From contig NZ_MRCE01000032.1 of assembly GCF_001904725.1 (NCBI RefSeq), forward strand, positions 1-64,000: a DNA stretch of 64,000 nt, in the 5' to 3' direction. Source of the DNA: [Phormidium ambiguum] IAM M-71 (GTDB lineage Bacteria > Cyanobacteriota > Cyanobacteriia > Cyanobacteriales > Aerosakkonemataceae). This document shows, piece after piece, positions 13,867 through 64,000 of this stretch. Both the position numbers and the translations under genes were made by a program. Numbering within the stretch: the first letter of the stretch is position 1; each line of letters starts with the position of its first letter. The notes under the pieces were generated by a model. The model was not told where the DNA came from, did not search any database, and saw only the letters and a program-made list of their open reading frames with translations.

Positions 13867-13872
13867 CACAAC

Positions 13873-20048: not shown

Positions 20049-20049
20049 G

Positions 20050-20095: not shown

Positions 20096-20101
20096 CTTAA
20101 A

Positions 20102-21040: not shown

Positions 21041-21095
21041 ATTTCTCCTTCCCCTAGCGGGGATTCTCTGGGAACTTTTGTGAAAAACTGAAATA

Positions 21096-23621: not shown

Positions 23622-23696
23622 GGAAGTTAGCTCAATGGGTAGAGCGATCGACTCTTAATCGATTTGTCACAGGTTCAAATCCTGTACTTTCAACCA
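23621..23696 (+). tRNA. tRNA-Lys (anticodon CTT)
   Basis: The sequence folds as a 76-nt cloverleaf. The D-arm is GCTC/GAGC. The anticodon stem ATCGA/TCGAT encloses the loop CTCTTAA. The T-arm is ACAGG-TTCAAAT-CCTGT. CCA is encoded. Confidence 0.7.
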
Positions 23697-36418: not shown

Positions 36419-38327
36419 TAATTGCTCTTTTTTTTAAGAGTTCCCGAAATTTGCCCATCGCTATCTTCCCAGTCGCTTTTTGGTCTGACTTCACATCAGC
36501 AGTTGTCACTGGCTCAGTTGGGTCATTGGGTAGCGGTAGCAATTCATACGCAGCACGAATGCGATTATCGAGTTCCGTATCGATATCGATCGATTGTTTG
36601 GTCTTAGGGTCAAGTGAGTGCCAATAAGCTCGTTTTTCCAGTTGCGATCGAATGTTCGTATCCCACAATGCTTCCGACTCTTTAGCACGTTTGAGGTCAC
36701 TAGGCTTCACAGGAACTTTTAAGGGATAGGGAAATAGCGCTTCCGTACCAGAACCATAAGCAGGAGACGTAATTACGCACTTACCTTGGGGAAATCTTAG
36801 AATTTCGTCAACACTAATCAGCGGTTTCTTTTGCAATTGTTCGTTCCAATTGACAGAACGACTGGTCTGATGACCCATCGAACTACCCGTCGAGCGATTT
36901 TTAACCAGTACCTCTACTTCGCCGTAACGTTTAGAGTATTTCTCAGCGGTATCGTAATCACCTGGATTGAATAGCACATGGGTAGAAAGGGCACTAGCGA
37001 TCGCAGCCCCTTTTTTATCCCCGTAAAGGTTATACAATTGGTTCAAGCTTTGAATGCCCACAATGGGAACACCACCAGCACTGCGATATTCGTTAGCCCA
37101 TTGATCCATGCGATCGAATTTCAGTGAGGGGAATTCGTCCAAACAATACACGAAGGGGTCTTTTCTCTGTTTGGATAAATTACTGACGACGCACAAGTGA
37201 ATGGCAGCAGCTAAAAGCGGCCCAACTACAGCACGTCTTTGGTCATCTAATTTGAAAATGATGCACTTTTTCCCTGATAAAACAATCGGGATGGTACTTT
37301 GACCGATAAAGGCTCTTAGTAAATCTTTTTGAATGAAAGCCGAATAAGTTGCTTCGGCGGTAGCTTTGATACCTGCTACAGTTTTTTCAGCATCTTTGGA
37401 ACTTAAAAGTTGAGAGAAACTAGCAGCAATCCATCGATCCATTTTCAAAGGATGACCGTCAGGACGGTGAACGGCATGATGAATGCGCTTGACTAAATCT
37501 GGTAATTGAATGATTGCATAGACCATTGCTAAATCTGGATAGGGACTACCTTTAGCTAGCTGTACTAATCCCTTTGCCATCAACTCACCAGCTTTCTCAA
37601 AAAACTCGTTACCTTTGCTATCTCCCAAACTGGCATTACGCGCAATTACCGAACCAATTTCTGCTGCCATGACTGCATCTTGAGCATCTCTCATAAAATC
37701 CAGGGGGTTAATAACACCCGAATAAGTTTCCCCCGGTGCAAACACCTGCACGTCATAACCGTAACGAACAGCTAAGGGAGCGTGTAATTTCATTTGCTCG
37801 CCTTTTTTATCGTAAATAATGACTGGAAATCCTTGTTGAAATGCGCTTTCAACTAAACGGTCAATAACGCTAAAAGTTTTACCACTACCTGGTGCGCCAA
37901 TTACCAAAATACCGCGTTCGGCGTGAGGGAACCAAACAGTAGGAGAAGCACTTAGTAAGGTTTGTAAGTAAGAGCTTAAACCCTTTAATTTACCAGGTAG
38001 CCAATAACTTGGGCTACCACTCCACAAAGTTACAGGTTGTCGTTTTTTTTCTTTAATTTGTTTGAGAGATAGACCTGTGGCTGTCATTTTTTCTGCTACA
38101 CCACACAAGCGTCCAGATGTTACTTTACCCTTGCCTGTTCCTACCAGTTTGGAAAAAATGATTAATCCTAAAAACATCCCTAACATTCCCAGCCCTTCTG
38201 GGTTCATAAACTGACCTATTAATCCACTAAATTCAATACCAATTAGCGGACGTTTAGCTGGTTGGCTTGTTGTTTGCAGCAGAATAGGTTGAGGATTTTG
38301 TTGAACAATGAATTGATGGTTTTGCAT
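36399..38327 (-). CDS. Type IV secretion coupling protein (VirD4/TraG/TraD family)
   Basis: An N-terminal TM segment is present. Walker A is [20 protein letters not shown] is Walker B-like. The size is 642 aa. Confidence 0.65.
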
Positions 38328-46074: not shown

Positions 46075-47259
46075 TTGCGGTCAATGGGTAGCAAAACTTC
46101 TTTGTTGTTACCCATGAAAAGTTTACTTGAAATTCCCATAATTGATTCAAAAATTCGCATTGAAGTTCGGCAGCACTTACGAAAAGAATCCTACCAAATT
46201 AAGAGCAGGAAAGATTTAATTCCTCACCTCAACCGGAATTTGAAACATGGCTGGCTCTTACCAATTTTAGCGCAAGTAGACCGTTGTCTTTGGGGAAGGT
46301 GGGATTATTGGGCGAGGTGTCAAGCAGTTCCGGCTCATGCTTGGACAAGATGGCAAATGGAACCAATGTTAGCTCTTTTAGAAAATCGCAAATCCGAACG
46401 ATTACCCAAATTTGTGATTCAAGAAACACTACCGAATGAACCAATACCTCAAATTGAATGGCAGTATTCGAGCCTAGCAGAAAGTATGCTAAACAATACG
46501 CTTAATTGTATTCCTAAACATGGGGAATGGCGCACTTGGAGTGCTTGGGAATATTTGCAATATTTCTTGCATTGGGCTTTGTTTGGTTTCGGTCATCCGG
46601 CTTACAAAAGTTTACCGAAAGAACCAGCAGGTTGTGAAGGTGCATCAATGCGTCTGTATCAGGTTTTCGATTTGTCTGCTCTCCTACTTTATCCTGAAGA
46701 TTATTTAGGTAGAATTCTTCCTGATATTTGTGGCAAGAAAGCTCAGAGAAATGCTGGGTTTTATCCGACACCGTTAGTGGTTGCTAGTTTCATATCTCAA
46801 GTAATTAGTCATGAGAAAATCGACCGAACTGCTAGTTTTTCTGAACCAGCTTGTGGGACGGGTGCTTTGATGTTGGCACAATCTAATAATTGTTTGTCTG
46901 GTATTGGTCAAGATATCGACCAAGTTTTGTTAAAATGCGCTTTATTTCAGTTTTTTCTCTATGCACCTTGGTTGGCAATACCGATTTGGTGGTTGGGTCA
47001 AACTGACCTATTACTTGGTAATAGTTTATCAGCCAAAAAGCCTGAATCAATGAATGCGGTTTATTGGTATTCAGAATGGTTTGAAACTGTTGAAAATAAG
47101 GAAGTGGCGGAAAATATTGAACCAACAATTGAGATAGTAGAACCAACAATAACCCCGAAAATAGTAGTTCAAGAAGTAGTACAGGGTAAACGCAAACCGA
47201 AAAAGAATCCAGCTTCAGGTCAGCAAATGACATTGTTTAATTTGGAAAATTTTACTTGA
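46075..47259 (+). CDS. N6-adenine DNA methyltransferase-like protein (HsdM/N6_Mtase-like motifs). Motif IV is not evident.
   Basis: AGFYPTPLVV matches the GxFYTP motif and EPACGTGALM matches the SAM motif I. No NPPY/DPPF was found. Confidence 0.4.
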   Translation: MRSMGSKTSLLLPMKSLLEIPIIDSKIRIEVRQHLRKESYQIKSRKDLIPHLNRNLKHGWLLPILAQVDRCLWGRWDYWARCQAVPAHAWTRWQMEPMLALLENRKSERLPKFVIQETLPNEPIPQIEWQYSSLAESMLNNTLNCIPKHGEWRTWSAWEYLQYFLHWALFGFGHPAYKSLPKEPAGCEGASMRLYQVFDLSALLLYPEDYLGRILPDICGKKAQRNAGFYPTPLVVASFISQVISHEKIDRTASFSEPACGTGALMLAQSNNCLSGIGQDIDQVLLKCALFQFFLYAPWLAIPIWWLGQTDLLLGNSLSAKKPESMNAVYWYSEWFETVENKEVAENIEPTIEIVEPTITPKIVVQEVVQGKRKPKKNPASGQQMTLFNLENFT

Positions 47260-48157: not shown

Positions 48158-49588
48158 ATGCAAACAAAAACTCGACCTGCTAAAAGAAAAAGCCAAGTCA
48201 AAGAAAATGGTTCTGTTCAAACAAAAGCTAAAGCTGATACCACGAGACGAACGGAATCTCAAGCTGAGAAGAAACCCAAAGTAGAAACAAAAGTAGAAAC
48301 AAAAGCAGAATCTACATCCGAAGTCAATACTAACAGTTCAGATGCTGTTCTATCAACGGGGATGCGATTAATTTGCACGCAAGAGAACTTAGCAACTCAC
48401 CTCGATTTAGTTAGTCATGCCGTGCCTGCTAAACCCACGCATCCAATATTAGGAAATGTTTTGTTGATTGCTAATCAAGAAACTCAAAAAGTTCAACTGA
48501 GTGTTTTTGACCTTAATCTAGGTATTCAAACATCATTTGATGCTAAAGTTCAAGCCTCTGGCGAATTGACTATTCCAGTGGGAATCTTGAGTGATATTGT
48601 AGCGAAACTCTCTCGCGGGGATATTACTTTAGTCAATCAATCGCCTTTGAATACGGAGGAAACTGAAGATAATCATCCCGAGAAAGTAGAGGCAGGTCAA
48701 CATCAAATTATGACGTTAATCGCTACTACTGGACGCTATCAAGTACGGGGATTACCAACTGAGGAATTTCCGCCGATTCCTGAAGTTAATTCAACGCTAA
48801 AAATTCGGGTGCCAGTGGAAGCTTTGCAAGCCGGAATTAAAGGAACGTTAATCGCTACAACTAGTGATGAAACTAAGCGCATTTTAACAGGTATTCACTT
48901 CAAAATAGAGTCAAATGGCATCGAATTTGCTGCGACGGATGGACATCGATTAGCTGTTATTAATACTTCGCTTTCCGGGTTCAAAAAGAAGAAACAAACT
49001 GAAATTACAGAGCCTTTAGAGTTTACAGTACCAGCTAAGGCGCTGGTGGAGTTAGAGCGGATTTTATCGAGTAGAACATCAGTCGAGCCAGTGGAATTAT
49101 TCTATGAAGAATCAAAGGGACTTATCGAATTTCGCTGGGGAACGCAACGATTAGTTAGCCGTTGTTTAGAAGGTGCATATCCAGCGTATCAAGAGTTATT
49201 GAAGCAGGATTTTAAACAACAGGTAACGTTGGAGAAAGCACCTTTGATTAAGGCTTTAGAAAGAATTGCGGTGTTGGCTGATAAGAAGGAAAAGAGTGTC
49301 AGTATCCGTCTTAATAGTGAAGCTCAACAAGTTTGTTTGTCATTGTTTAGGGAATTTGGAAATGGTCGGGAAGAGATGACGGCTTGCATTAATTGCGATA
49401 GTGATATGTCAGTTTCTTTTAACATTAAATACTTGTTGGAAGGAGTAAAAGTTATTGCTAGTTCAGAAATTCAGATGCAACTAACTCAAAAAGATGGCCC
49501 TGCTATTTTAGTTCCGTTTGGCAATCGAGAGCAACCTAATATTCTGATGGATGCTCAATACTTGTTAATGCCAATTTTCAAAGAATAA
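48158..49588 (+). CDS. dnaN: Second DnaN-like beta sliding clamp with a Lys-rich N-terminal extension
   Basis: HPILGNVLLIA and ATDGHRLAV are present. The protein is about 40% identical to the 18609..20048 copy by eye. Confidence 0.75.
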   Translation: MQTKTRPAKRKSQVKENGSVQTKAKADTTRRTESQAEKKPKVETKVETKAESTSEVNTNSSDAVLSTGMRLICTQENLATHLDLVSHAVPAKPTHPILGNVLLIANQETQKVQLSVFDLNLGIQTSFDAKVQASGELTIPVGILSDIVAKLSRGDITLVNQSPLNTEETEDNHPEKVEAGQHQIMTLIATTGRYQVRGLPTEEFPPIPEVNSTLKIRVPVEALQAGIKGTLIATTSDETKRILTGIHFKIESNGIEFAATDGHRLAVINTSLSGFKKKKQTEITEPLEFTVPAKALVELERILSSRTSVEPVELFYEESKGLIEFRWGTQRLVSRCLEGAYPAYQELLKQDFKQQVTLEKAPLIKALERIAVLADKKEKSVSIRLNSEAQQVCLSLFREFGNGREEMTACINCDSDMSVSFNIKYLLEGVKVIASSEIQMQLTQKDGPAILVPFGNREQPNILMDAQYLLMPIFKE

Positions 49589-49607
49589 TGAGGGGAGAAA
49601 ATAAATC

Positions 49608-50957
49608 ATGTACGCAGCATTACCTCAAAAATATCGTCCGCGCACGCTATCAGAATTAGCCGGACAGGAATACATTCAAAGAACGCTGGCTAATGCGATT
49701 AAGGGGAACAAAATAGCTCCTGCTTATCTATTTGCAGGCGAACGAGGTGTTGGTAAAACTTCAACGGCTCGTATTTTTGCTAAGTCGCTTAATTGTAATG
49801 CTACAGATAAACCAACTGTTACGCCATGTGGCAAATGTCAGTCCTGTCGTTCCATTGAAAAAGGGAATAGTTTAGATGTAGTTGAAATTGATGCAGCTTC
49901 TCATAATGGAGTAGAAGATGCTCGAACATTAATCGAACGAGCGCATTTTGCACCAGCGATGAGTCGCTATCGGATTTTCGTTTTAGATGAATGTCATCAA
50001 TTAAGTTCTCAGGCGCAAAATGCACTGCTCAAGTGTATCGAAGAACCTCCGGCTAATGTGGTTTTTATTCTTTGTACGACAGAAGCACATAAGCTATTGG
50101 CGACTATTAGTAGTAGGTGTCAAGTATTCCATTTTCGGGTGTTAGCTATTCATGCAATTGTACAGCAGTTAACGATGATAGCTGATAGCGAATCTATCGC
50201 TATTTCGGATGAGGCGAAGGTGGCTATTGCTCGGATTGCAGAAGGTGGACTTAGGGATGCTTTGCAATTACTTGACCAATTAAGTTTGTTAGGGGAGGAA
50301 ATTACTAGCTCTCACGTTTTGGAATTATCAGGAAGAATATCGGAGTCTGATTTAATAACAATTCTGCAATCAATTCGTAGTGGTGATACGTTGAAGTTGT
50401 TGCAATTATCTCGCGAGTTGATTGATAGCGGGAAGACAGCAAAGGTGTTATTGATGTCGCTACTTGCTTGTTATCGAGATTTACTGTTGGTAGGGAATGT
50501 ACGCGATAGTTTGCATTTGTTAACTAGCGGGATTTCCCATTCGACACTGCTGAAGATAGTGGCAGATTGGGACTATACAGTAATTAATGCTGGTATCGAA
50601 CAGCTACGTGCTTCGGAATGGCAGTTAAGTAAAAGCTTACAACCGAGTTTATGGTTAGAGGTTTGTCTGCTGGGATTGGTGCAGGGTAATAATTCCCCAA
50701 AGTCGAGTCAATGTTCTAAAGAAAAACAGCCTGTTCAACTAACAGCTATTTGGGAAAAGGTGCTGTCTAAAACTTCCGAAAGTAATCGAGTTCTGCTTGA
50801 GGTTGCTTCTTTAGTGGAACTCAAAGGTAAGAAAGCTGTATTGGCTGTGCCTGCTAAGTACTTAGATAGGTTTAATCGGAATACGGCTAAGGTACAAAAG
50901 ATGCTGTTTGGGGTGACTGGTGTTCATTATCAATTGTTGATTCAGGAGAAGATTTGA
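49608..50957 (+). CDS. dnaX: Second DnaX-like gamma/tau clamp-loader ATPase
   Basis: YRPRTLSELAGQE, GERGVGKTS, CNATDKPTVTPCGKCQSC, DECHQLS and SRCQ are present. The N-terminal half is about 70% identical to the 21096..22472 copy. Confidence 0.8.
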   Translation: MYAALPQKYRPRTLSELAGQEYIQRTLANAIKGNKIAPAYLFAGERGVGKTSTARIFAKSLNCNATDKPTVTPCGKCQSCRSIEKGNSLDVVEIDAASHNGVEDARTLIERAHFAPAMSRYRIFVLDECHQLSSQAQNALLKCIEEPPANVVFILCTTEAHKLLATISSRCQVFHFRVLAIHAIVQQLTMIADSESIAISDEAKVAIARIAEGGLRDALQLLDQLSLLGEEITSSHVLELSGRISESDLITILQSIRSGDTLKLLQLSRELIDSGKTAKVLLMSLLACYRDLLLVGNVRDSLHLLTSGISHSTLLKIVADWDYTVINAGIEQLRASEWQLSKSLQPSLWLEVCLLGLVQGNNSPKSSQCSKEKQPVQLTAIWEKVLSKTSESNRVLLEVASLVELKGKKAVLAVPAKYLDRFNRNTAKVQKMLFGVTGVHYQLLIQEKI

Positions 50958-51907
50958 TGATTAGTTTGTTAGTTGGTGATGACGTTCACGCGATTAACAA
51001 GAAGCTTTTGGAGTTCAAAAAAAGTCTTGACCCGGATTGGATAAGTTTCAACTACCATCGATTTTCGGCTGGTGTAATTGAGGAGGCTATTGATTGTGCG
51101 TTAACTCGTGCATTAGGGAAAGGGAAAGGAAAGTTAGTGGTGGTTGAGGAGTGCAATTTCAAACAGTTTACTGAGGAAACGATGAAAAGTCTTCAGTTGT
51201 TATCGCAGGTGCCAGAAACAACACATTTGGTATTTGTCGCATCAGCGATTGATAAGCGATTGAAAGTGGTAAAGTTTCTACTTTTTCAAGGTAAACTGTT
51301 TGAATTCAATTTAATTGCGCCTTGGAGAACAGATTTAATCGCTCGGTCGATAGGAAGTGAAGCAAAAGCAATGGGTTTGTCGCTTGATAGAAAGATTATT
51401 GAGTATTTGGCGGGTGCTATTGGTAATAATTCGGCGCGTGCTGAAGTGGAATTACGAAAGCTGGCGAGTTACAGTAATGGGAAGAAGCTTAGTGTTGAGG
51501 AAGTGGGAGTACTTGTTCCTTCAACTACTCAGAATAGTCTGCAATTAGCTTCTGCAATTCGAGAGAGTAATGCAACTAAAGCTGTCAATTTGTTGCAAGA
51601 GTTGCTAGATAAGGAGACTTTTCCATTGGCGATTTGTGCCACACTAATTACTCAGTTTAGAACTTGGATGTGGGTGAAGGCGGTGCTGGTGGGTGGGGTG
51701 AAGCAGGATGCTGAAATTGCCAGAGTTTGTCAAGTTGCTAATCCCAAACGGGTATATTTTCTCAAACAAGAGGTGGCTGGTGTGGGTTTGCGGTCTTTAA
51801 TTCAAGCGATGTCGATGTTGTTGGAGTTGGAGGTGGCGCTTAAAGGGGGACGGAAGGGGGATTTGATGTTGACGACGGCGTTGGCGATGGCTTTAGTATT
51901 TGGTTAA
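50954..51907 (+). CDS. holA: Second HolA-like delta subunit
   Basis: The start MMISLLVGDD is holA-like. The gene has an ATGA overlap with dnaX. It is collinear with the 22469..23458 copy. Confidence 0.65.
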   Translation: MMISLLVGDDVHAINKKLLEFKKSLDPDWISFNYHRFSAGVIEEAIDCALTRALGKGKGKLVVVEECNFKQFTEETMKSLQLLSQVPETTHLVFVASAIDKRLKVVKFLLFQGKLFEFNLIAPWRTDLIARSIGSEAKAMGLSLDRKIIEYLAGAIGNNSARAEVELRKLASYSNGKKLSVEEVGVLVPSTTQNSLQLASAIRESNATKAVNLLQELLDKETFPLAICATLITQFRTWMWVKAVLVGGVKQDAEIARVCQVANPKRVYFLKQEVAGVGLRSLIQAMSMLLELEVALKGGRKGDLMLTTALAMALVFG

Positions 51908-52371: not shown

Positions 52372-55300
52372 ATGATTGCCCCTAACGAGTTTCAGCGCTA
52401 CTTAAAATCAGTTCTTGATACTTCAGGGGAGAACACCAAACGGGAGGTAGCTGATCGCTATATTCCAACGCTAGCTGAGTTGCCCTTGCAGGTACAAACT
52501 GCTGTATCATCTCAGCCAAACTCACAGGAACAACAAAATGAGAGGCGAGAGCAGTTCGCAGTGCTAGAGGGATTGCGAAAGTATGCTCCAGATCGTGTGC
52601 TGTTGGTGGGTAAACCTGGTTCAGGAAAATCAACTTCACTGCGGCGATTGTTGTGGGAAGAAGCAGAACGCTGTTTAAAAGCGATCGAGGAAGGTGAGAG
52701 CGAGATTCCCCCAATACCTATCTTGATTGAATTGCGGGGTCTTAAAGGTTCAGTGTTAGCAGCGATTCAAGAAAATCTGGGATGGTGGCTTGACCTTGAT
52801 GAGAAAACCTTAAAAAGTCTCTTCCGTGATAGAGGATTGTTCGTGTTCTTAGACGGGTTGAATGAATTACCTAACGAACAAGCTTGGCAAGCAGTAGATC
52901 AATTTAGACAGGTATGTGCTGATTTAAAAGTTCCTATAATCATTACAACGCGAGAACTGGGTTCCGGCTTGGTTCAGGAAAATATTAAGAAGCTGGAAAT
53001 GCTACCGCTGACTGAGCCTCAGATGTGGGAGTTTGTCCAAAAGCAGTTACCGGAGACGGGTGGGGAACTATGGCGGCAAATTCAAGGGAAGCTTCGGGAA
53101 TTAGCAGAAACGCCGTTGCTGCTAAAGATGTTGTGTGATGTTTTTAAACAGAATCATAAAAATATTCCTAAAAGCCGAGGAGATCTATTTCGTAAGGAAT
53201 TTGCGCGACGATATGAGGAATTTAAACCTGAACGATATCGGAATATTTCTGAAGACTCGCGTCGTTTTGCGTTTGATCTACTGAGCTATCTCGCCTTTAC
53301 GATGGTTCAAGGCGAACCTCATACCGATCCCTGCCAACCCAGTGCCTCTTGGATTACTATTCCTAAAACTCAGGCAGAAAAAATATTAGCCACGTTTCTG
53401 GCAGGCGATCACATACAAACTTTGGAGGATACGACAAAAGCAAAAGAGTGGTTAGAGGATTTAGTGGAATGGCATTTACTCCAAGTAGCTAGTGACCCAA
53501 CCCAAATAGAGTTTCACCATCAACTGTTTCAGGAATATTATGCAGCGGAGCGGCTAGCGCCACAGTTGGCAGAGTTGAGTGATGAAGAATTGCAATATTA
53601 CTACTTAAATTATCTAAAGTGGACGGAATCGCTAGCAATGGCGATGTCGTTTGTGGAGTCTGAGGTCTTAGCAGTGCGGATAGTGAAACTAGCACTAGAT
53701 GTTGATTTGCAATTGGGAGCAAGACTAGCTGGAGAAGTTAAGCGTGAAAATCAAGCCAGAACAGTAAATATGATTACTGATTTAGAAGTTTCTGAAAAAT
53801 TTAAGGTTAGACTATTGGGCATGACAAGTTCTGATGTTGCTATTCCTTTTCTCAGCCAAGCTCTAGAAAATAATAACGATACCTTTACAAAAAATGAAGT
53901 TGCTGATTGCTTAGAGAAAATTCATAGTTATGCTTCAATTCCTCTCCTTAAGAAGATTCTAGAGGATGCTGATTTTAAACTTAAGTTAAAGGCTGCTTGT
54001 TCATTAGCTCGTTATGGTGATGAAACGGTTATACCAATTCTTAAATATGCTCTCAATAATAAAGAATACCATTTTAGATCTCTTCTGGCCCTAGAGAAAA
54101 TCAGTCGAGATGTTGTGATTCATGCACTAAACGAAATCTTGAGTAGAGGAGATATAGAGATGCGCCGTCAAACGGTATCTAGTCTTCATGTTTTAATTCA
54201 GCGAAAATATGAAAATATAGTACCTCTTTTAATAAAGGCATTGGGTGATGAAGATAGAGAAATTAGGTATCAAGCAGCATATGTTTTAAAAAATCAAGGA
54301 GGCAAAGACGCTCTCGCTGCTTTAGCAAAACTATGGAAAGATGAAAACATTTTAATCCGAAATATTGTTTATATTACGTTTAAGGGACAAGAAAGGAAGG
54401 ATTTAATATCCGAGCTGACAGAATCTCTTTTATCCGAGGATTCTGCACTTCGTAAGAAAGCCGTAGAAACTCTAGGAAGACTGGGTACAGAATCAAAAAC
54501 AGCCATTAAAGCACTCTTTAAAGTTGCTTTTGCAGATCGAGACTTTCTAGTTCGCAATAGTGCTTTAACCGCTCTGATTCAAATCGGAAACTCAACATTA
54601 ATACAGACCTTATCCAAAATTTTAGAACAACAAGAAGAAGTAATTGAATACAGTTCAAATCACTGTGTAGCAGTTATTACATTAATAATGATTCGCTGTA
54701 AGGAAGCCATCCCTATATTATCTCGCGTTTTAATAGATAATAATAGAAGTCCTATACTGCGCGGATTGGCAGCTAAAGCTCTTGGTGAAATAGGCGATAC
54801 ATCAGTTAATAATATACTTCTGGAAATACTGAATAATAATCAGATAGATGATTATATCTGGTTTCAGGTTCTTTTGGCTTTAGGAAAACTTGGTATTGAA
54901 GGTCTTGAAGGCAGGATCGCTAATTTTCTAAAGCATCCAAATTCTGATAAACGAAAAGAAGCTGTAGAAACTTTAGCAATCATTGGAACCGTTACAGCAA
55001 ATGTTGGTTTAACTCAGGCTCTTACCGATGATGACTTTTCAGTTCGTTTCACTGCTGCTTGTTCTTTGGGAAAAAACGGCAATGAAGCCGCCATCCCCGT
55101 TTTAATTGAAGCACTGGGGCAGCGTGACTCTATAGGATGGGAAGATACAAGAGTATGTGAAGATGCTATAGAGGTTCTGAGTCAGATTGGAGCAATAGCT
55201 CTCATTCCTCTGAAGGAAGCTTTAAATAATTCCGACTACCAGATTGAACGGAATGCAGAAAAGGCCATTAAAAAAATTAGCAAATCTCTGGCAAAAGATT

Positions 55301-56097
55301 TGTTAAGCGATGACTTTGAGAGCTATAAATTTTTAAGTCTTGATAGTTCCATTAATGAATCCTTAAATCAGTATAATGATATTAATGAAAAATCAAATTT
55401 ACTAGAAAATTTTTTGTCGTATTTTGATGCGTATTGGGAATCAAAGCCTGAATTGAGTAATGATGCTATTACTGAAGATATCTCTCTGCTTTATAAACTT
55501 ATTGCCGAAGAACAATCAAGTGAGTTATTGAATTATATTGTAAATAAAATCCTTTCAACTCAATCCCGTTGTCAATTTTATAACTGCGACATCGCTCGGT
55601 TGCCACCCCCTCGGAAAACGCAAAGCAAAGAATCAAGTATAGAAGATTTAGTACATAATAAGTTAGACATACTTACCCAGGAGTTCAAAAAAGTGTCTGA
55701 AGAACCTAAGCGCGTCATTAATACTAACAACTACTTTGAACAAGGCATCCATACCCATACCCACAATTATGCAAACGATGAAACTTTAAAACAACAAACC
55801 GTCGAACTTCGCCAATTGGTACATCAAATTCAGCAAACCCACCAACCAACCACCGAAGTCGAAGCTGCTAAGATCATTGATGTCGAATTTCGCGAAATCC
55901 AAAAGACGAACCCGACTCGGTGGCAAACACTAAGGAAACAACTGCAACTTTTAAAGCGCCAACTCTTCAACCCAGAAAGTCACTTTAAAGCCACAAAAGC
56001 AACCCTTGCTGAAATCGCTAAACATTATCTCGAAGAAAGTGTCGTTTCCAAAGCCGTCATTACTTACCTAGACACTATGAGTGCTGACTCTGACTAA
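52372..56097 (+). CDS. STAND/NACHT-type P-loop NTPase fused to a long array of HEAT (PBS-lyase-type) repeats (1241 aa)
   Basis: Walker A is LLVGKPGSGKST and Walker B is LFVFLDGLNE. At least 10 repeats of about 31 aa have the form LxxALxDxDxxVRxxAAxALGxIG. Confidence 0.7.
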   Translation: MIAPNEFQRYLKSVLDTSGENTKREVADRYIPTLAELPLQVQTAVSSQPNSQEQQNERREQFAVLEGLRKYAPDRVLLVGKPGSGKSTSLRRLLWEEAERCLKAIEEGESEIPPIPILIELRGLKGSVLAAIQENLGWWLDLDEKTLKSLFRDRGLFVFLDGLNELPNEQAWQAVDQFRQVCADLKVPIIITTRELGSGLVQENIKKLEMLPLTEPQMWEFVQKQLPETGGELWRQIQGKLRELAETPLLLKMLCDVFKQNHKNIPKSRGDLFRKEFARRYEEFKPERYRNISEDSRRFAFDLLSYLAFTMVQGEPHTDPCQPSASWITIPKTQAEKILATFLAGDHIQTLEDTTKAKEWLEDLVEWHLLQVASDPTQIEFHHQLFQEYYAAERLAPQLAELSDEELQYYYLNYLKWTESLAMAMSFVESEVLAVRIVKLALDVDLQLGARLAGEVKRENQARTVNMITDLEVSEKFKVRLLGMTSSDVAIPFLSQALENNNDTFTKNEVADCLEKIHSYASIPLLKKILEDADFKLKLKAACSLARYGDETVIPILKYALNNKEYHFRSLLALEKISRDVVIHALNEILSRGDIEMRRQTVSSLHVLIQRKYENIVPLLIKALGDEDREIRYQAAYVLKNQGGKDALAALAKLWKDENILIRNIVYITFKGQERKDLISELTESLLSEDSALRKKAVETLGRLGTESKTAIKALFKVAFADRDFLVRNSALTALIQIGNSTLIQTLSKILEQQEEVIEYSSNHCVAVITLIMIRCKEAIPILSRVLIDNNRSPILRGLAAKALGEIGDTSVNNILLEILNNNQIDDYIWFQVLLALGKLGIEGLEGRIANFLKHPNSDKRKEAVETLAIIGTVTANVGLTQALTDDDFSVRFTAACSLGKNGNEAAIPVLIEALGQRDSIGWEDTRVCEDAIEVLSQIGAIALIPLKEALNNSDYQIERNAEKAIKKISKSLAKDLLSDDFESYKFLSLDSSINESLNQYNDINEKSNLLENFLSYFDAYWESKPELSNDAITEDISLLYKLIAEEQSSELLNYIVNKILSTQSRCQFYNCDIARLPPPRKTQSKESSIEDLVHNKLDILTQEFKKVSEEPKRVINTNNYFEQGIHTHTHNYANDETLKQQTVELRQLVHQIQQTHQPTTEVEAAKIIDVEFREIQKTNPTRWQTLRKQLQLLKRQLFNPESHFKATKATLAEIAKHYLEESVVSKAVITYLDTMSADSD

Positions 56098-56597: not shown

Positions 56598-56978
56598 GAA
56601 GATAATGATGAATCTAGTGGTTGGAGGATTGAATCTTTACGCAAGAAACTGGGCATCCTCCCCTCGACTCCTCTAACGTTTCCCACTATAATCTGCCCAC
56701 TTTGTCACCAAGGTTTTTTCTCTGATATTGAGTTACAAAACCATATTTTTCAGGTTCATAAAGATCACCGTTGCTACATTCGCCTTAACGATCAAAGCCG
56801 ATACTTCCCTGGAGATTTTGCTGCGTTGATTGAGCCAAGCATAATGAAAGAGAGTCGAGTTAGAGCTATGTACTTTGATTCTCAACAAATTAATGAATAC
56901 TTACAGACTATTATGTGCCTCAACTGCAATCGTCCATGTGCTGGTACTTGTCAACTAGATCCTCCAAAACATTCCTAA
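56598..56978 (+). CDS. Possible small C2H2 zinc-finger protein. The reading frame has no canonical start codon and may be frameshifted.
   Basis: The frame encodes ICPLCHQGFFSDIELQNHIFQVH, which is C2H2-like, followed by CLNCNRPCAGTC. An ATGATG start lies in the +1 frame at 56605 and gives 23 codons before a stop. Confidence 0.3.
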   Translation, partial: EDNDESSGWRIESLRKKLGILPSTPLTFPTIICPLCHQGFFSDIELQNHIFQVHKDHRCYIRLNDQSRYFPGDFAALIEPSIMKESRVRAMYFDSQQINEYLQTIMCLNCNRPCAGTCQLDPPKHS

Positions 56979-57035: not shown

Positions 57036-57836
57036 TTAATTCAGTACTAGAATTCCTTGATAAATCAACCGATCGATATGTTCTGTAACTTGGCTGGCTA
57101 AATCTTGACTGTGAACTAACAGTCCCATTTCCATATTCAGCGCCAGTGCATATTCGGTTAGATTCGCACTGGAAATGAAGAGGTGGGTGTTATCTGCGAT
57201 CGCACATTTAATATGCAAAGAACCAAACCGACCGTCTGAATCAGTCAGTCGTTGTTCGTGAGGCCAAACAAATACTTGCGCTTTGGTGATAATTTTAGTA
57301 CCGAAAGCTGTTTTAATCCCAAATGGAATTTTAGCATGGTCAGAATCGGGTGTTTCCACAATTATTCGCAGTTTCACACCTCGATTAATAGCAGTTACCA
57401 ATGCCGCTGCTATTTCAGGGACTTTATAAACAGCAAAACTAATCAAAAGTAATTCTTGTTGAGCATTTTGAATTAATTGTAATAGCACTTGGTCAGTGCG
57501 ACGCAGAGGAATATCGGAAATACTTGGGCCAGTCCAAACTATTTCAACTGATAATTGTTCTTGGTTTTGTTGCTCGCAATAAGCAGCAGTTAATAAAGCA
57601 GTAGCCAGAGAAGAACTATCCAAACTTGGGGCTTGAGTATGCCATACTTCAATTAATTGGACGATCGCTTGTCGCCAACTGACTTTAGGTAATCGCTGGA
57701 GTAATTCACTTTTTAAGTTATCAGAATCTCCTCTGCTTTGACAGTTACTTAAGACATTAGCAATTGATTCCAATGTCGGGGTTGGTAGTTCCAAAGCTAC
57801 ACGCCGAATTTGAGCTAGTAATGGGGGTGACAGCAT
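57036..57836 (-). CDS. drmC: Phospholipase D-family (HKD) nuclease-like protein, DrmC-like
   Basis: The HKD motif is HIKCAIADNTHLFISSANLT, that is HxK-x4-D-x6-GSxN-like. The gene shares a boundary nucleotide with the upstream DUF1998 gene. Confidence 0.55.
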   Translation of the reverse strand: MLSPPLLAQIRRVALELPTPTLESIANVLSNCQSRGDSDNLKSELLQRLPKVSWRQAIVQLIEVWHTQAPSLDSSSLATALLTAAYCEQQNQEQLSVEIVWTGPSISDIPLRRTDQVLLQLIQNAQQELLLISFAVYKVPEIAAALVTAINRGVKLRIIVETPDSDHAKIPFGIKTAFGTKIITKAQVFVWPHEQRLTDSDGRFGSLHIKCAIADNTHLFISSANLTEYALALNMEMGLLVHSQDLASQVTEHIDRLIYQGILVLN

Positions 57837-59722
57837 TAATTAAATTTGAAGAATGCTAGTTCATTTAAATCAGATTTCATCGTAGGAATTAACAAAGTGC
57901 GATCGAGATATTTATTACCCCGTTCGCAGGATGTTTCTGGACTGAACAGACAAGCATGGCAAGCTGCCCAATGTAAGGATGTTGTATTTTGTAAGGGAGT
58001 GTGTTCTGCACATAAGGGGTCAGAAGCACACAGACGCATTTGTTCTAGCGCTTGGTCAATGTGACGACCCAAAGTATTAGGTTCGCCTAAACTTACCAAT
58101 CCTCCTAGCGTACCTTCGCTGTCTGGTGCAGCCGTATAAAGCAACACGCCTGCCATTGGGCCATTGTCTTCATTGGGATATTTTGAGTAAATGCGTTCGC
58201 GTAGGCTAGCAGCAGTGTAGCCACATTCGATCGCCAGTTGCCGCATCAATGCGTGAGCGAAAGAATGAAGCAAAATATAACGAACGCCAGGGTAGTTGGC
58301 ATCAAGAGGTTCCAGAGAACGTGCTCTGCGCCAAAGGCGATGGGCTTCTAGGCTTTGTTGGTCGTAAGTTTTTAATCGGGGCGTACTGGATAACCAATGT
58401 TGTATTGCTTGTTCTCGAAATTGAATAAAAATGCCTTCACCGCGCACCTCTGAGGCTGGCACCCATTTAGGCACAGAGCGACTTAAAGATGCCCAGTATT
58501 CTTCGGGTAATTCTCCCGTTTCAGCATAATCGCCAGGGGATTCGATGCGAGTAAAACCTACCAAGGCACGAACTTCTCGCAAGCGTTCTACTAATACCAC
58601 TTTTTCAAAATATGATTCGTAATTTTTAGGGGCAGCAACAGGCGTTAACCAAAAGTCAGCATTATTTAAATTAGTATTAGCTTGGGAAAAAACTTGCCAT
58701 TCTGGAGTTTTAATATCTTTAACATCAATCGGGTCTGCTTCATTCGTTCCTTTACGTTTACCCTCTATTTCTTGCCAGATTTCTGTGTCTGAATATTTAG
58801 CAAATTCTTTGAGTTGACCGATTTGGCGGAAAGCAGCGAGAATTTCAATTGCGATCGCTTTTTCTAACACCATCCAATGTTTTTCCACCAGTTGTCCAAG
58901 TTGATTGATGGTTGTTGGAATGGAGAGAACAGAAAGCGTTATAGGAAACCAGCTATTTGATGCGCCCAGCAATATACTCTTCATTTGTTGAGTGCATCCA
59001 TCTTCATCGAAGCTGCGTAGATGTGGATTACGTCCCCGACACTGGGGCATATTTTTCTTACCTAATTCGCCAAAAGCATCGGACATCCGACGAGAAGCAT
59101 TACAAGTATCGCATTTGACCTCGATATCGGTAGCTGAACCGGAAACTCCATACTCGTAGAGGCGAAGAGAACCTTTGCAATTACTGTTACCTTTATGTAC
59201 AAAGTAGTGCCAGGGAAAATCATCTAAATGTCCGTGCTGGCAAGCAACTAGAAATCTAGCAGGGATAACAGTTGGTGGATATTTTCCTTTCGGGCAGTTG
59301 CTATGCACGTAACGATTTTGGTCGGGTCGATAGCGGTCTGTTTTTAGCTGGAATAATCCCGATTTTAGAGGAGCGAGTAATCGGCATTGGGGGCATAACG
59401 CCCAAGTTGGGAATGGTGAAACGGGAATTCCTATTTTGACGCTTTCATCAAGAATGGTACTGCTAGACTCTGAAGCAACAGGTGGTGTTAGTAGTTTTTT
59501 AACTTGATTGCCTAGTTCTCGTCGCACAGCTGCTAGCAAGCGTTCTTCTCCTAATTCGGAGGCGTGGGTAATGTCCCAGTCATCTAATCCCATTACCATT
59601 GTTGAAAGGTTGGGTAAGTCTACAACTGAACCTATTCCTGAAGAAAATAAAATTTGGCTGGGTCGTAATTCTCCGACTTTGTTTCTAGATGAAGATTGAT
59701 TTGTTGTCATAGTATTAAGCAA
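57836..59722 (-). CDS. drmB: DUF1998-family protein, DrmB-like
   Basis: The C-terminus has the signature ACHACLFSPETSCERGNKYLDR. Internal Cys clusters are CPQCRLL and CDTCNASRR. Confidence 0.55.
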   Translation of the reverse strand: MLNTMTTNQSSSRNKVGELRPSQILFSSGIGSVVDLPNLSTMVMGLDDWDITHASELGEERLLAAVRRELGNQVKKLLTPPVASESSSTILDESVKIGIPVSPFPTWALCPQCRLLAPLKSGLFQLKTDRYRPDQNRYVHSNCPKGKYPPTVIPARFLVACQHGHLDDFPWHYFVHKGNSNCKGSLRLYEYGVSGSATDIEVKCDTCNASRRMSDAFGELGKKNMPQCRGRNPHLRSFDEDGCTQQMKSILLGASNSWFPITLSVLSIPTTINQLGQLVEKHWMVLEKAIAIEILAAFRQIGQLKEFAKYSDTEIWQEIEGKRKGTNEADPIDVKDIKTPEWQVFSQANTNLNNADFWLTPVAAPKNYESYFEKVVLVERLREVRALVGFTRIESPGDYAETGELPEEYWASLSRSVPKWVPASEVRGEGIFIQFREQAIQHWLSSTPRLKTYDQQSLEAHRLWRRARSLEPLDANYPGVRYILLHSFAHALMRQLAIECGYTAASLRERIYSKYPNEDNGPMAGVLLYTAAPDSEGTLGGLVSLGEPNTLGRHIDQALEQMRLCASDPLCAEHTPLQNTTSLHWAACHACLFSPETSCERGNKYLDRTLLIPTMKSDLNELAFFKFN

Positions 59723-59772
59723 TATATAAATTTCTTAGCTTTGTAGTGAGCGCTTTAGCGCTAAAGCGCTTA

Positions 59773-62700
59773 CTACGAACTTATGATTTCGTTTATACTT
59801 TGGAGTGGGCGGGAGTCATCATCGGGAATGCGCTCGTCTAAAATTAACCCAATGCTCGGTTCTACATTTCGCAAAGAATTTAAGCAAGTAAAAGGTTGCC
59901 AATTGCTTTGTCCGGGTTGTTCCAATAGCCCAAGGGTAACGCCATCTTTCTTAGTTTGATATCCTAAAATGCTTCCCCCAACTGAATTGGCTGCTACCTC
60001 CAGCCAATAGTCGAGTTTGGCTTCTAGTTCCTGTTTCACTAAGTCGCGAGTTTTGGCATCTCCTACCGCCCAAGCCCGATCGCAAATTGCATCAATAGCA
60101 GCTTGCACGTAAGGATGATGTCGGGAAATTCTTCCGGCTTTATCATTGAGGTTTAGTTCGCTACCTGCTAATCGCACTAAGGAAACTAATAAAGCAGCTA
60201 ATCCTCGATCGATCGCGCGGGGGGCAAAGGGAGTAATTGAAAGCGCTTCAACGTGCTGGTAGAAGGTAGCATGATAATGTTCAAATTGTTCGTAATGAGA
60301 TAAATCTCTGGGTCGCGCCCAGTTATAAACTGTGAACACTAAACCAGGGAAGGTGCGCCCTACCCGCGAGGTTGCTTGAATATATTCAGCGGTAGTTTTG
60401 GGTTGTCCTGTTACTACCATTACCCCTAAACGTTTTACGTCTACACCAACAGAAATCATGTTGGTAGCTAGTAAAACATCTAAAGGTTTGCGTCTATTGT
60501 TTTTCTGAGATTTATCTGAAGAAAAGGGCGTTTCTAACCAATCCAATACGATGGGAATATCGGTAGAATTTTTCCGGGAGGTGAGTTCTTCTACTTCAAT
60601 TCGCAAACGTTTTGCTAAACCTCTGCGATCGGTTTTTCCCAAGCGAGATTGGATATCATCATCAACTAAACGCCTAGTTCCCCCTAATTCCCGCATTGAG
60701 TTAAAATAACCAACTAAGGTCATCCAAGGGTCAACGCGATCGCCTTCTTTTTCAAATAAGTATTGCGATGCTGCTAATACTGCTGTATAAACCCGAATTA
60801 ATGCTGCTTTTAATCGTCTTCCGGTGGCACAGATGCCTAAATATCGCCGACCTGGATAATCTTCTGAAGGCGGACGTTGGCAGGAAAAAAAGTTATCTTT
60901 AATATCTAATCCTTGGGGTGGAAAAACTTGTACTTGGCGCAAAAATAGGTTGTGTACTTGGTCACGCGCCTGTCGAATTGTCGCAGTAGAAGCTATCACT
61001 TTGGGACGAACAATTTTACCATTAACTTCCCAAGATGCTAGTTTATCAACGGCGGTTTCATAAAGTCCGACCAGAGTTCCTAAAGGGCCGCTAATTAAGT
61101 GTAATTCATCTTGAATAATTAAATCTGGCGGTCGCAAGGGATTAGTAGGAATTGTTTTAGCGCTGGGAAGTCCGTATTTACTTGGATGGGAGTCAGAATC
61201 ATCTATTTCGGGAGAACGAAAACCGTGACGAGTGCAGTATCCATCTACTTGTCCGAATAGCATTTGCACTGCACCATTCCAAGGCATTTGGGCAAATTTA
61301 TCAACAGTTGCAATCAGCAATGTTGGCAAACGGCGATAAATTTCTTCGTCTACAACGACGATGGGTAAACCTTCAGTGGGGGATTGTCTTTGGGTAAATA
61401 AACATCTTCCTAAAGCATCGCCGCAGTAAATTAAAGTACGTCCTTGTCCCTTGGCGAAAGATTCAACTTTAATATGTTGTTTGCCTGGGTCTATTTTAGA
61501 ACCACACCAAGGACAATTTGTTAATTGATGGGGAGAACCGCTGCTAGCGGATTGGTATTGTCCGAGTTTTTGTTTGAGAAATTCATCGCTTTGTTCGGTA
61601 CGATTTGGGGTGGTTTTCATTCCCACCCATAACCCAATTCGGAAGGGTTCTTTTCCCCATTTTTGTTCATCTTGGCGGCGGATTTCTTCGCAGGCACAAA
61701 TTAAGGCGGTAGCGCGTTGGAATTGTTGTAATGTCAATAGGCGGAGAGTGTAGCGCATGAGAACGGCAACGCCTGCTTCACCAGAACGTCCGGCAATGGT
61801 TCCTTGCAATCTTCTCAAACCAATGGTGTATGCTGTTAATCCTAAATATGCTTCGGTTTTACCGCCGCCTGTGGGGAACCAAAGTAAATCTGCGATCGCT
61901 TCTGTAGGATGACACCTATCTATATGATCTAATTGAGTAATACTGGGAAGATTAAGCAAAATAAATGCTAATTGAAAGGGTCGCCAAGTGCGATTTTTCG
62001 GAACATCAATTTTCTCTATTTCAATATCTTCACCGCGTCTTTTATTTTCCGCATAAATTGAGTGAATCCTCTGTTGCCACATGGCGCGATTCATAAAGCG
62101 GAAAGCTTCGGCGGCGTTGTTATCTGTTTGCAGCAAATCGATTCCAGCTTGGATGCGTTGGAGAGTGCGATCGCAATTTTCCATTGCTGTTTTAGCTGCA
62201 TCCTGATAATCTGTTAAACCAGAGGCAGGGTCGGAAATTTTGGCAGTTTGTTGAAAAATCCAATCGGCATAAGCAGTCGTTAAAGAACTTAAAGCAGTTG
62301 ATAAATCAGAAATTTCTGCCAGTTCTTTCATATCTAAAACTAATCCCGCCAGTCCGGGGATTTCGGCAATTGTTGGCGGTGTTGTTTGGGGAACTTCGTA
62401 GGCGGGAACGACTTTGGTAGAAAGACGAATGGCGCGATGGGGGTTTCCGGGTAGCGTTTCGGCGTGTACGCCTGTACCATGTCCGACAGCGAATTCTACG
62501 CAGTCGCGGTACAGCATCGCCATTGCTTGTTCTTCTGCAAATAAGGCGGGGTCGAGTTTACCAAGTTGGCGTTTTTGTTGCCTTTTAATAAAGATGTCGG
62601 GTTGATGATTATCGGCAGATTCGACGCTGAGTTCTGGTTGGAATAACCAAGCTTTATCGACTAATCTTTCTGGTTCTTTTTGTCCGTTAACTAAGAATAA

Positions 62701-63720
62701 AGTTACTATCCAATCTTCGCCTTGTTTGCGAATTAATCCTGAGACGATTACATCTTCATAATCAGGATGAATTATCCAAGGGGGAATATTTCCTACTTTG
62801 AGAAGTATTGGATTAGAAATACCGACTATTGGCGTGCGTTTCCAGACGGTTTTAGGACTTTTACCATCTTCTTTGAAAATTGTTTCGCTGGCAATGCGAT
62901 CGTACTGTCCCCAACCTGCTTTTACTTTAATTGCTTTGGCAGTTCCATCAACGCAAAAAGTCATCCCCATTGATGAGGGAAACATTTTTTCAGCAGGGGG
63001 AATGCTACTTTCAGTGGTGCCTTCTTCTGCTGTACCGCTACCGGAAACTGCCAATTCGTCTATTTGTTCTGGCGTTTCTTCTAATTCTTCCGGTCTAATG
63101 CGTCGCTGCGTGGGTGCGAGGAGTCCGACAAGGTAGCGATCGCTTACTCGCTGTTCGTCTATTTCTTCATTTTCTCCCCCAGCAGGGCCAAGTAAATCAT
63201 CTAATACCGCTTGTTCTAATTCTGCCCGAATTTGATAATAGCTTGCAGGTTCTAAGATAGAAGACTGCAAAGTTTCTATCTTAGGTATTTCAGTCTGTAA
63301 TTCTGCATTGTCTTCACTAACGGTAGGAACGAATTGCATTTCTATAAGTTTTCCTTGTCCGTCTGTTTCTTGAGTTTGACAAGGAATGAATTGAGTTTCA
63401 AAAAGATTGCCTTGTTTGGCACTTATAGGATCGATCTGAGAAGGTTTTTGGCAGGTAAACCTTTTCGTTTTTTTCTGTTGATTATCGAAAAAACGGATAA
63501 TTTCAGCAGCTATAGTATCGGACATAGTGCTGCTTTCTAAATCCAAGACTTCCGCATCATTTATTAAATCTAAACCTTTTAGTAAGATGGCAAGATGTCG
63601 TTCTGGTGCAGAAACTACGCTACTCCAATCTAATTGAGTATTCCCATTTTTTAATTTTTGATTAATCGCTGCTAAATCCAAATTGCCAGGAAGTACAGCC
63701 GGAAGTTGAATAATATTCAT
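59773..63720 (-). CDS. drmA: Large SF2 DExH helicase, DrmA-like (1315 aa)
   Basis: Walker A is FPTGGGKTEAYLG and DExH is IIQDELHLISGP. Motif VI is QATSRVGR. There is a long N-terminal non-helicase region. Confidence 0.55.
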   Translation of the reverse strand: MNIIQLPAVLPGNLDLAAINQKLKNGNTQLDWSSVVSAPERHLAILLKGLDLINDAEVLDLESSTMSDTIAAEIIRFFDNQQKKTKRFTCQKPSQIDPISAKQGNLFETQFIPCQTQETDGQGKLIEMQFVPTVSEDNAELQTEIPKIETLQSSILEPASYYQIRAELEQAVLDDLLGPAGGENEEIDEQRVSDRYLVGLLAPTQRRIRPEELEETPEQIDELAVSGSGTAEEGTTESSIPPAEKMFPSSMGMTFCVDGTAKAIKVKAGWGQYDRIASETIFKEDGKSPKTVWKRTPIVGISNPILLKVGNIPPWIIHPDYEDVIVSGLIRKQGEDWIVTLFLVNGQKEPERLVDKAWLFQPELSVESADNHQPDIFIKRQQKRQLGKLDPALFAEEQAMAMLYRDCVEFAVGHGTGVHAETLPGNPHRAIRLSTKVVPAYEVPQTTPPTIAEIPGLAGLVLDMKELAEISDLSTALSSLTTAYADWIFQQTAKISDPASGLTDYQDAAKTAMENCDRTLQRIQAGIDLLQTDNNAAEAFRFMNRAMWQQRIHSIYAENKRRGEDIEIEKIDVPKNRTWRPFQLAFILLNLPSITQLDHIDRCHPTEAIADLLWFPTGGGKTEAYLGLTAYTIGLRRLQGTIAGRSGEAGVAVLMRYTLRLLTLQQFQRATALICACEEIRRQDEQKWGKEPFRIGLWVGMKTTPNRTEQSDEFLKQKLGQYQSASSGSPHQLTNCPWCGSKIDPGKQHIKVESFAKGQGRTLIYCGDALGRCLFTQRQSPTEGLPIVVVDEEIYRRLPTLLIATVDKFAQMPWNGAVQMLFGQVDGYCTRHGFRSPEIDDSDSHPSKYGLPSAKTIPTNPLRPPDLIIQDELHLISGPLGTLVGLYETAVDKLASWEVNGKIVRPKVIASTATIRQARDQVHNLFLRQVQVFPPQGLDIKDNFFSCQRPPSEDYPGRRYLGICATGRRLKAALIRVYTAVLAASQYLFEKEGDRVDPWMTLVGYFNSMRELGGTRRLVDDDIQSRLGKTDRRGLAKRLRIEVEELTSRKNSTDIPIVLDWLETPFSSDKSQKNNRRKPLDVLLATNMISVGVDVKRLGVMVVTGQPKTTAEYIQATSRVGRTFPGLVFTVYNWARPRDLSHYEQFEHYHATFYQHVEALSITPFAPRAIDRGLAALLVSLVRLAGSELNLNDKAGRISRHHPYVQAAIDAICDRAWAVGDAKTRDLVKQELEAKLDYWLEVAANSVGGSILGYQTKKDGVTLGLLEQPGQSNWQPFTCLNSLRNVEPSIGLILDERIPDDDSRPLQSINEIISS

Positions 63721-63916
63721 ACTTGCAATATTTCGTAATATATATAAACTAGCAATTTAGCCTTTTAGCATAATACCACATTTAAATACGTAGGGTGCGT
63801 TAGGCGCAGCCGTAACGCACCATCTCATCTAATAAAACCTTCCAAATATTAAAACTTTTCAGTCCGTTAAAACGGACTTTCGCTATAAGAAAAGCGAATT
63901 GATTCGCAGGCGGGCT

Positions 63917-63982
63917 AAAACGACGGACAATTGATTCGCAAATGGGCTAAAACGACAGACACAAGATTTAAGATATACTATT
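63917..63982. promoter_or_regulatory. Two ~33-bp direct repeats (attgattcgcaNNNgggctaaaacgacRgaca) upstream of the drmA-like gene. The first overlaps a GCGAAT-TG-ATTCGC palindrome.
   Basis: The repeats are visible directly in the sequence and lie about 200-260 bp upstream of the drmA start. Confidence 0.45.
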
Positions 63983-64000
63983 TTAGTCAGAAAAATCAGG

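Follow-up and report, generated by a model that had tools for sequence, protein, structure and literature searches.

A probable class 1 DISARM system of [Phormidium ambiguum] IAM M-71 with its drmMI gene beyond the edge of the analyzed window

The drmABC core

The 64,000-nucleotide stretch of [Phormidium ambiguum] IAM M-71 DNA analyzed here, termed the window, carries near its right end the core of a DISARM anti-phage defense system. Three consecutive minus-strand open reading frames (ORFs) at positions 57036-63720 encode DrmA, DrmB and DrmC, in that order. The gene drmA (59773-63720, ATG start) encodes a DISARM class 1 short-type SF2 DExH helicase of 1315 residues. The following drmB (57836-59722) has a TTG start and encodes the DUF1998/MZB zinc-binding partner of DrmA, which is 628 residues long or, from an alternative start at 59710, 624 residues. 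The last gene, drmC (57036-57836), encodes a 266-residue protein of the PLD/HKD nuclease family, which belongs to the class 1 type. A preliminary description of the window had placed the same three ORFs here and taken them as a DISARM core with touching boundaries. The boundary between drmB and drmC does touch, as the stop of drmB shares one base with drmC, but drmA and drmB are separated by 50-62 nt. Part of this gap (59749-59772) consists of a palindromic element with three copies of AGCGCTTA (TAAGCGCTTTAGCGCTAAAGCGCT).

Profile searches support the assignment of all three proteins by wide margins. DrmA reaches 1430.7 bits against the NCBIfam model NF038325 (DISARM_DrmAS, cut-off 950), compared to 765 bits against the long-type class 2 model DrmAL, which is below the cut-off of 999. 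DrmB scores 728.6 bits against NF038324 (DrmB_fam, cut-off 240) and DrmC 237.4 bits against NF038319 (DISARM_DrmC_I, cut-off 133). The top PADLOC matches of the three proteins are DrmA, DrmB and DrmC, with 1144 bits for the DrmA model and 404 bits for the DrmC model; a weak ZacB match (E-value 3e-4) trails the list of DrmC. In agreement with these results, Pfam identifies Helicase_C (pfam00271) in DrmA, the MZB domain PF09369 (the former DUF1998, named “MrfA Zn-binding domain” in Pfam) at residues 488-592 of DrmB with 43.5 bits, and PLDc_2 (pfam13091) in DrmC with 79.9 bits.

The only PDB structures related to DrmA and DrmB are the cryo-EM structures of the DrmA and DrmB chains of Serratia sp. 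SCBI (7S9V/7S9W), and both proteins align with them nearly end to end. Residues 143-1302 of DrmA match residues 125-1312 of 7S9V_A with 1142 bits, and residues 12-626 of DrmB match residues 5-617 of 7S9V_B with 653.9 bits. Inspection of the sequences revealed the helicase motifs I, II and VI of DrmA (GGGKT at residue 618, DELH at 871 and QATSRVGR at 1115), in addition to an acidic low-complexity stretch at about residues 205-245 that aligns with the trigger loop of the Serratia protein. The CHAC, ETSCE and LDR motifs of DrmB are located at residues 588, 596 and 606, respectively, and the HxK(x)4D motif of DrmC, HIKCAIAD, at residue 208, so that all the motifs quoted in the preliminary description are present. 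Altogether, the reading frames and catalytic motifs of the core are intact, and the identities of the three proteins and their gene order are established. The locus is also already known and annotated: DrmA is 100% identical to OKH33164.1 / WP_073596057.1, which bears the RefSeq name “DISARM system helicase DrmA [Phormidium ambiguum]”, and the DrmD of the same strain is likewise named in RefSeq.

The methyltransferase gene drmMI and the spacer

Within the window, no methyltransferase, drmD or drmE gene lies beside the core. The preliminary description offered two accounts of this lack, one that the modification module lies beyond the window, the other, given in its title, that the locus is a methylase-less variant. 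The former proved correct: the apparent lack of the methyltransferase results from the end of the window, which is only 280 nt from the drmA start codon. As drmA is transcribed away from this edge and class 1 DISARM has drmD and drmMI ahead of drmABC (bioRxiv 10.1101/2021.12.28.474362), such partners were to be expected outside the window. An exact look-up of DrmC recovered the 19.7-kb contig SRR4407854_118 of Logan, a public read-set assembly (locus L080). Its positions 3837-16015 are 100% identical and gapless over 12,179 nt to positions 64000-51822 of the window; therefore positions 1-3836 continue the window past base 64000. A chimeric assembly is unlikely, because the 71.5-kb NCBI contig that carries drmA fits the same extension in length.

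On this contig drmMI occupies the same strand as drmA and ends 2,691 nt upstream of it. The gene call gives a protein of 1378 residues with the Pfam domains MmeI_N, N6_Mtase, Eco57I, MmeI_Mtase and MmeI_TRD. Positions 1-1428 of the contig encode the C-terminal 475 residues, on which the PADLOC model DrmMI scores 600.9 bits. This C-terminal fragment is 73% identical to its best match in a large protein collection and 70% identical to the DrmMI of the DISARM system of Ancylothrix sp. C2. At the DNA level, drmMI is a mosaic relative to Ancylothrix: the last 400 nt (L080:964-1367) are 95% identical, compared to 74% for the preceding part of the C-terminal region (L080:7-688), where the target-recognition domain MmeI_TRD was called. 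Such a pattern would fit swapping of specificity domains. No C5 methyltransferase was seen on this contig.

Five unrelated ORFs and several terminator-like hairpins occupy the 2.7-kb spacer between drmMI and drmA. Nearest to drmA, two ORFs on the opposite strand encode 114 (or 140) and 65 residues, and further upstream two ORFs of 155 and 128 residues have hydrophobic N-termini; none of these four has a Pfam or PADLOC match. The 65/114-residue pair has no relation to the xisH/xisI genes found at the same site in Oscillatoria. The fifth ORF (L080:1457-2080, ~1.9-2.5 kb past base 64000) begins 28 nt after the drmMI stop codon and encodes a 207-residue protein with an RNase III domain (PF00636). 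Its signature, read by eye, is KRLAHLGD...AEMFKAVFGAIY, in which other residues seem to take the place of several of the customary catalytic acidic ones; a double-stranded-RNA-binding domain is lacking. A homologue of 47% identity is found in the cargo upstream of the DISARM genes of Tildeniella nuda (L021:4291-4908), beside a 917-residue helicase/restriction-like protein.

The drmA-proximal end of the spacer forms the 280-nt leader within the window (63721-64000, minus strand), which is non-coding and contains a repeat and a hairpin, as had been described. Tandem Repeats Finder located two tandem copies of a 32-nt unit at 63897-63961, which another repeat finder missed. The hairpin at 63794-63821 has a 9-bp stem and occurs only once in the window. 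The leader folds only modestly better than shuffled sequences (z = -1.9). A scan for promoters and terminators in the spacer and in the region downstream of drmC gave counts near the shuffled expectation, and an Rfam scan of the window and the Logan contig yielded no match in or near the DISARM region.

drmD in the genome

A search with the DrmD of Microcoleus, followed by a cluster listing, identified a full-length DrmD, the SNF2-like helicase of the system, in the same strain. This protein (P0367; OKH31124.1 / WP_073597074.1) has 1049 residues and scores 1365.6 bits against NF038317 (DISARM_DrmD, cut-off 610). Its gene is on a separate contig of 40.6 kb.

The gene order of relatives and the ends of the contigs suggest where drmD belongs. 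Wherever the upstream sequence of a related locus sufficed for scoring (38 of 38 loci), drmD is the immediate upstream neighbor of drmMI, and the gap is 750-870 nt in the nearest group, that of Microcoleus and Oscillatoria. The 71.5-kb length of the NCBI contig is about that of the window plus the 7.5 kb of Logan contig past base 64000, so that the two assemblies seem to stop ~0.94 kb upstream of the drmMI start. A break at ~940 nt fits the gap of the relatives. A related Logan contig, whose DrmD shares at least 90% identity, likewise ends 66 nt downstream of drmD (L083:5131-5197). These breaks hint at a repeat located between drmD and drmMI in the lineage. To judge from the gene order of the relatives, drmD likely sits directly upstream of drmMI across the assembly gap. 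The extension that the preliminary description had proposed, past base 64000 in search of drmD, drmE or a methyltransferase gene, thus yielded drmMI, and the genome holds drmD on another contig.

Comparison with related systems

A characterized point of comparison is the class 1 DISARM of Serratia sp. SCBI, with the order drmD-drmMI-drmA-drmB-drmC plus drmMII. DrmA and DrmB of P. ambiguum align with their Serratia counterparts over their full lengths and agree with them in the helicase motifs, the acidic region of the trigger loop and the cysteine motifs of DUF1998; both systems also have a class 1 type DrmC and an MmeI/PglX-like DrmMI upstream of the core. In contrast to the Serratia protein, DrmA of P. 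ambiguum has ~140 extra residues at the N-terminus, which are common to its cyanobacterial and Chloroflexi relatives. The two loci also differ in the 2.7-kb cargo spacer between drmMI and drmA, in drmMII, which was not seen in P. ambiguum, and in drmD, which in the P. ambiguum assembly is on a separate contig.

The closest relative that carries drmC is Ancylothrix sp. C2 (GCA_025370775.1, JAMXEX010000037.1; L082), with identities of 85% for DrmA, 86% for DrmB and 78% for DrmC. Its genes are arranged as drmD-drmMI-DUF559-uvrD-like-drmA-drmB-drmC. The DNA of the two loci is 85% identical over a stretch that starts 462 nt into drmA and ends with the drmC stop codon, and weaker matches extend back to the drmA start codon. 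The similarity returns in drmMI, whereas the segment between drmMI and drmA is unrelated: in Ancylothrix a gene for a UvrD-like helicase overlaps the start of drmA, whereas P. ambiguum has the RNase III-domain ORF and the four small ORFs there. No remnant of the UvrD-like or DUF559 gene was found in the spacer of P. ambiguum or in the whole window.

Plasmid pOSC7112.01 of Oscillatoria nigro-viridis PCC 7112 (L081) and Microcoleus spp. (L001, L026 and others) encode DrmA proteins 80-85% identical to that of P. ambiguum. Their gene order is drmD-small ORF-drmMI-spacer-drmA-drmB, which P. ambiguum matches from drmMI onward and probably also for drmD, and they share with it small opposite-strand ORFs in the spacer and a plasmid backbone with dnaN-dnaX-holA nearby; the ORF after their drmD is PD-(D/E)xK-like. 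Their spacer is ~1 kb long with xisI/xisH on the opposite strand, compared to 2.7 kb in P. ambiguum, and the eight loci (L081, L001, L002, L007, L009, L012, L026 and L047) lack drmC, with drmB followed directly by plasmid-borne dnaN-dnaX-holA.

[quoted passage not shown] The P. ambiguum locus combines a short-type DrmA, an adjoining DUF1998 protein DrmB, a PLD protein DrmC encoded after drmB and an N6-adenine methyltransferase DrmMI preceding the core, all of which are class 1 features. Class 2 would call for a long-type DrmA and, beside drmABC, the C5-cytosine methyltransferase DrmMII (pfam00145), with or without DrmE. These features are lacking, as DrmA fails the long-type model, DrmC fits the class 1 model, no methyltransferase gene follows drmC and no C5 methyltransferase was seen on the Logan contig. 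We therefore propose that the locus is an ordinary class 1 DISARM core on plasmid- or conjugative-element-like DNA, with drmMI 2.7 kb upstream and drmD in the genome, most likely just ahead of drmMI, and put the probability of this at roughly 86%.

Several observations weigh against this proposal. With five unrelated ORFs and 2.7 kb between drmMI and drmA, the genes do not form a single tight operon. drmABC has to rely on a promoter of its own or on read-through transcription. drmD is located on a different contig, of 40.6 kb, from that of drmMI-drmABC. The sequence of drmMI was read over its C-terminal third, and the integrity of the catalytic N-terminal part is taken from a precomputed gene call with its list of Pfam domains. 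In addition, the UvrD-like helicase gene that abuts drmA in the closest drmC-bearing relatives is absent, and if this helicase is required in the clade, the P. ambiguum system could be impaired.

The title reading of the preliminary description, a self-sufficient DrmABC module that recognizes the structure of invading DNA and needs no partner to mark its own, was suggested by the empty flank of the core within the window. It has a precedent in that the DrmABC of Serratia still protects against phage M13 when the methylases are missing, and their loss has no toxic effect (bioRxiv 10.1101/2021.12.28.474362); moreover, 7 of 54 related loci have no drmMI within ~10 kb upstream of drmA. However, a contig identical to the window has drmMI upstream on the same strand, the genome also holds drmD, and DrmA and DrmC are of the class 1 equivalog subtypes, which go together with drmD and drmMI. 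This reading is wrong for the locus as described, and we consider a methylase-less module very improbable here. The description had also stated that its title would be refuted by a methyltransferase gene found outside the window just ahead of drmA; drmMI is essentially such a gene, though five small ORFs intervene. A further possibility, which we regard as unlikely though less so, is a decaying or dismembered system, in which insertion of cargo, loss of the UvrD-like gene and possibly separation of drmD have uncoupled the modules, so that the genes are intact but do not act as a unit. The spacer with its opposite-strand ORFs (two of the five) and hairpins, the traceless absence of the UvrD-like and DUF559 genes of Ancylothrix, the separate contig of drmD, and the homology to Ancylothrix that begins exactly at the drmA start codon would all agree with decay. 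By contrast, all reading frames and catalytic motifs are intact, and relatives whose genes are intact often have gaps of up to 8.8 kb. The UvrD-like gene is likewise absent from the eight Microcoleus/Oscillatoria loci, in which xisI/xisH occupy this site on the opposite strand, which suggests that such a layout is tolerated.

Alternatively, the helicase and its DUF1998 partner might belong to another system of the YprA family, such as ARMADA, Druantia, Dpd or MrfAB repair, as the preliminary description had considered for Druantia DruE and MrfA/B-like proteins. YprA-like helicases and DUF1998/MZB modules are common to all these systems, and the Pfam match of DrmB bears the MrfA name. ARMADA, in particular, resembles class 1 DISARM in its BrxHII/SNF2-like helicase, PglX-like methyltransferase and helicase of the YprA family (bioRxiv 10.1101/2025.09.15.676423). 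However, its gene sets as described include no separate DrmB or PLD gene, and its YprA helicase clusters with that of Druantia, not with that of DISARM (bioRxiv 10.1101/2025.09.15.676423). In P. ambiguum the DUF1998 domain forms a separate protein and is followed by a PLD gene, which is the DISARM-like arrangement. Every PADLOC match of DrmA and DrmB is a DrmA or DrmB model, and no ARMADA, Druantia or Dpd model occurs among their PADLOC and NCBIfam matches; the DISARM equivalogs pass their cut-offs widely, compared to only 21.5 and 14.6 bits for DECH_helic and RecG on DrmA; and the sole relatives in the PDB are the Serratia DrmA and DrmB. Membership in one of these other systems is thus extremely improbable, and the DISARM assignment of the preliminary description stands.

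The class 1 assignment allows a working model by analogy to the Serratia orthologues. In Serratia, DrmMI methylates a non-palindromic motif, and activity against phages and plasmids together with host methylation at the DrmMI motif is known for that system only (bioRxiv 10.1101/2021.12.28.474362). The Serratia DrmAB complex is autoinhibited by the trigger loop of DrmA, is activated by DNA with a 5' single-stranded overhang, and depends on ATPase activity, DNA binding and heterodimer formation (PMC9142583). DrmC is dispensable in the systems tested (bioRxiv 10.1101/2021.12.28.474362; PMC9142583). By analogy, the MmeI/PglX-like N6-adenine methyltransferase DrmMI of P. ambiguum would mark the host DNA at a non-palindromic motif, and DrmA and DrmB would form a heterodimer held inactive by the acidic trigger loop of DrmA. 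Invading DNA with a 5' single-stranded overhang may then displace the trigger loop, and ATP-driven translocation of DrmAB would block the replication of the invader, with DrmC as a putative accessory protein. Both the activity and the methylation motif of the P. ambiguum system are inferred from the Serratia orthologues.

The assignment adds one more class 1 DISARM and removes a false lead, a methylase-less DISARM that arose from a truncated window. A partner gene that is missing within 300 nt of the edge of a window is not evidence of its absence. In addition, the two halves of a class 1 DISARM can stand several kilobases apart, so that detectors with tight limits on gene distance may score such loci as incomplete.

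The drmMI-drmA junction in relatives

A scan at one genome per species gave 79 related loci. Across 51 loci, the distance between drmMI and drmA ranges from 18 nt in Actinobacteria to 8,850 nt, and 105 of the 127 cargo families in the gap are singletons. The cargo includes several defense genes, namely IetA/IetS, a DarG-like macrodomain protein with a DarT-like giant protein, and AbiLi/AriA-like (AbiL/PARIS-like) ATPases, in addition to PDC-M03B, an MkoA-like helicase, PDC-S26 and PDC-S11. Gap cargo is found in L005, L006, L010, L011, L016, L021, L042, L043, L058, L060 and other loci.

A recurrent gene in this gap encodes a UvrD/GajB-like helicase of ~700 residues; in 29 related DISARM loci, of cyanobacteria, Chloroflexi and others (among them L003, L021 and, at ~7900-10004, L082), it overlaps or adjoins the start of drmA. 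In the three loci checked, the two genes share 4 nt at the drmA start codon, a placement that would suit a sixth DISARM gene. Neither the P. ambiguum locus nor the Microcoleus group has this gene. A limited literature search found no paper on a UvrD-like partner or a cargo site of DISARM; the matches concern ARMADA ArmD only.

These comparisons lead us to a tentative proposal, to which we give somewhat less than even odds: in class 1 DISARM of Cyanobacteria and Chloroflexi, the junction between drmD-drmMI and drmA-drmB-drmC might be a cargo site in which other defense genes nest. P. ambiguum would represent one state of this site, in which the UvrD-like gene is lacking, and its degenerate RNase III-domain gene, possibly co-transcribed with drmMI, would be a candidate accessory. 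The variable cargo site and the UvrD-like gene could serve the cataloguing of defense islands and the dissection of the DISARM components that are required, an observation that concerns the relatives more than the window locus.

The seven loci in which no drmMI was seen in the ~10 kb upstream of drmA are L003, L004, L013, L018, L021, L056 and L066. Six of them show no drmD either, and L004 has a weak SNF2-type match of 30% identity. Either their cargo exceeds 10 kb, or they are genuine uvrD-drmABC modules without an adjacent methyltransferase gene, which would be the variant of the preliminary description, though in other genomes.

Genomic surroundings of the core

Downstream of drmC, the window holds no methyltransferase gene. 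A 50-residue ORF at 56826-56978, which the preliminary description had listed as a possible zinc-finger pseudo-ORF, is not conserved, and the homology to Ancylothrix stops at the drmC stop codon; we treat it as a chance ORF. The next gene (52372-56097, plus strand) converges on drmC and encodes 1241 residues, with a NACHT/AAA_16-like P-loop at the N-terminus and numerous HEAT repeats; the protein matches HEAT-ARM_XIII of PADLOC. It may be a separate NLR-like defense gene.

The preliminary description had also pointed to a methyltransferase-like gene at 46075 as a potential partner of the core. This ORF (46075-47259, plus strand), which comes after a family A DNA polymerase gene (43585-45498) and a 145-residue ORF, has no Pfam, PADLOC or NCBIfam match, and hence none to a methyltransferase family, and was rejected as a DISARM partner.

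With its plasmid- or ICE (integrative and conjugative element)-like backbone, the window resembles a segment of a large plasmid or conjugative element. It carries a coupling protein of a type IV secretion system (36399-38327), the family A DNA polymerase and two dnaN/dnaX/holA-like sets (18609-23458 and 48158-51907), one of which is 65-80% identical at the protein level to that of pOSC7112.01. A group II intron lies at the left edge (257-2033), and two tRNA genes are located at 23549-23693. Finally, the ORF at 27217-29874 (plus strand) encodes an 885-residue helicase of the YprA/MrfA type with DEAD, Helicase_C and WHD_HRQ1 domains and a C-terminal MZB/DUF1998 domain; by its predicted domains, the window thus holds another relative of the DrmA/DrmB family, in fused form.

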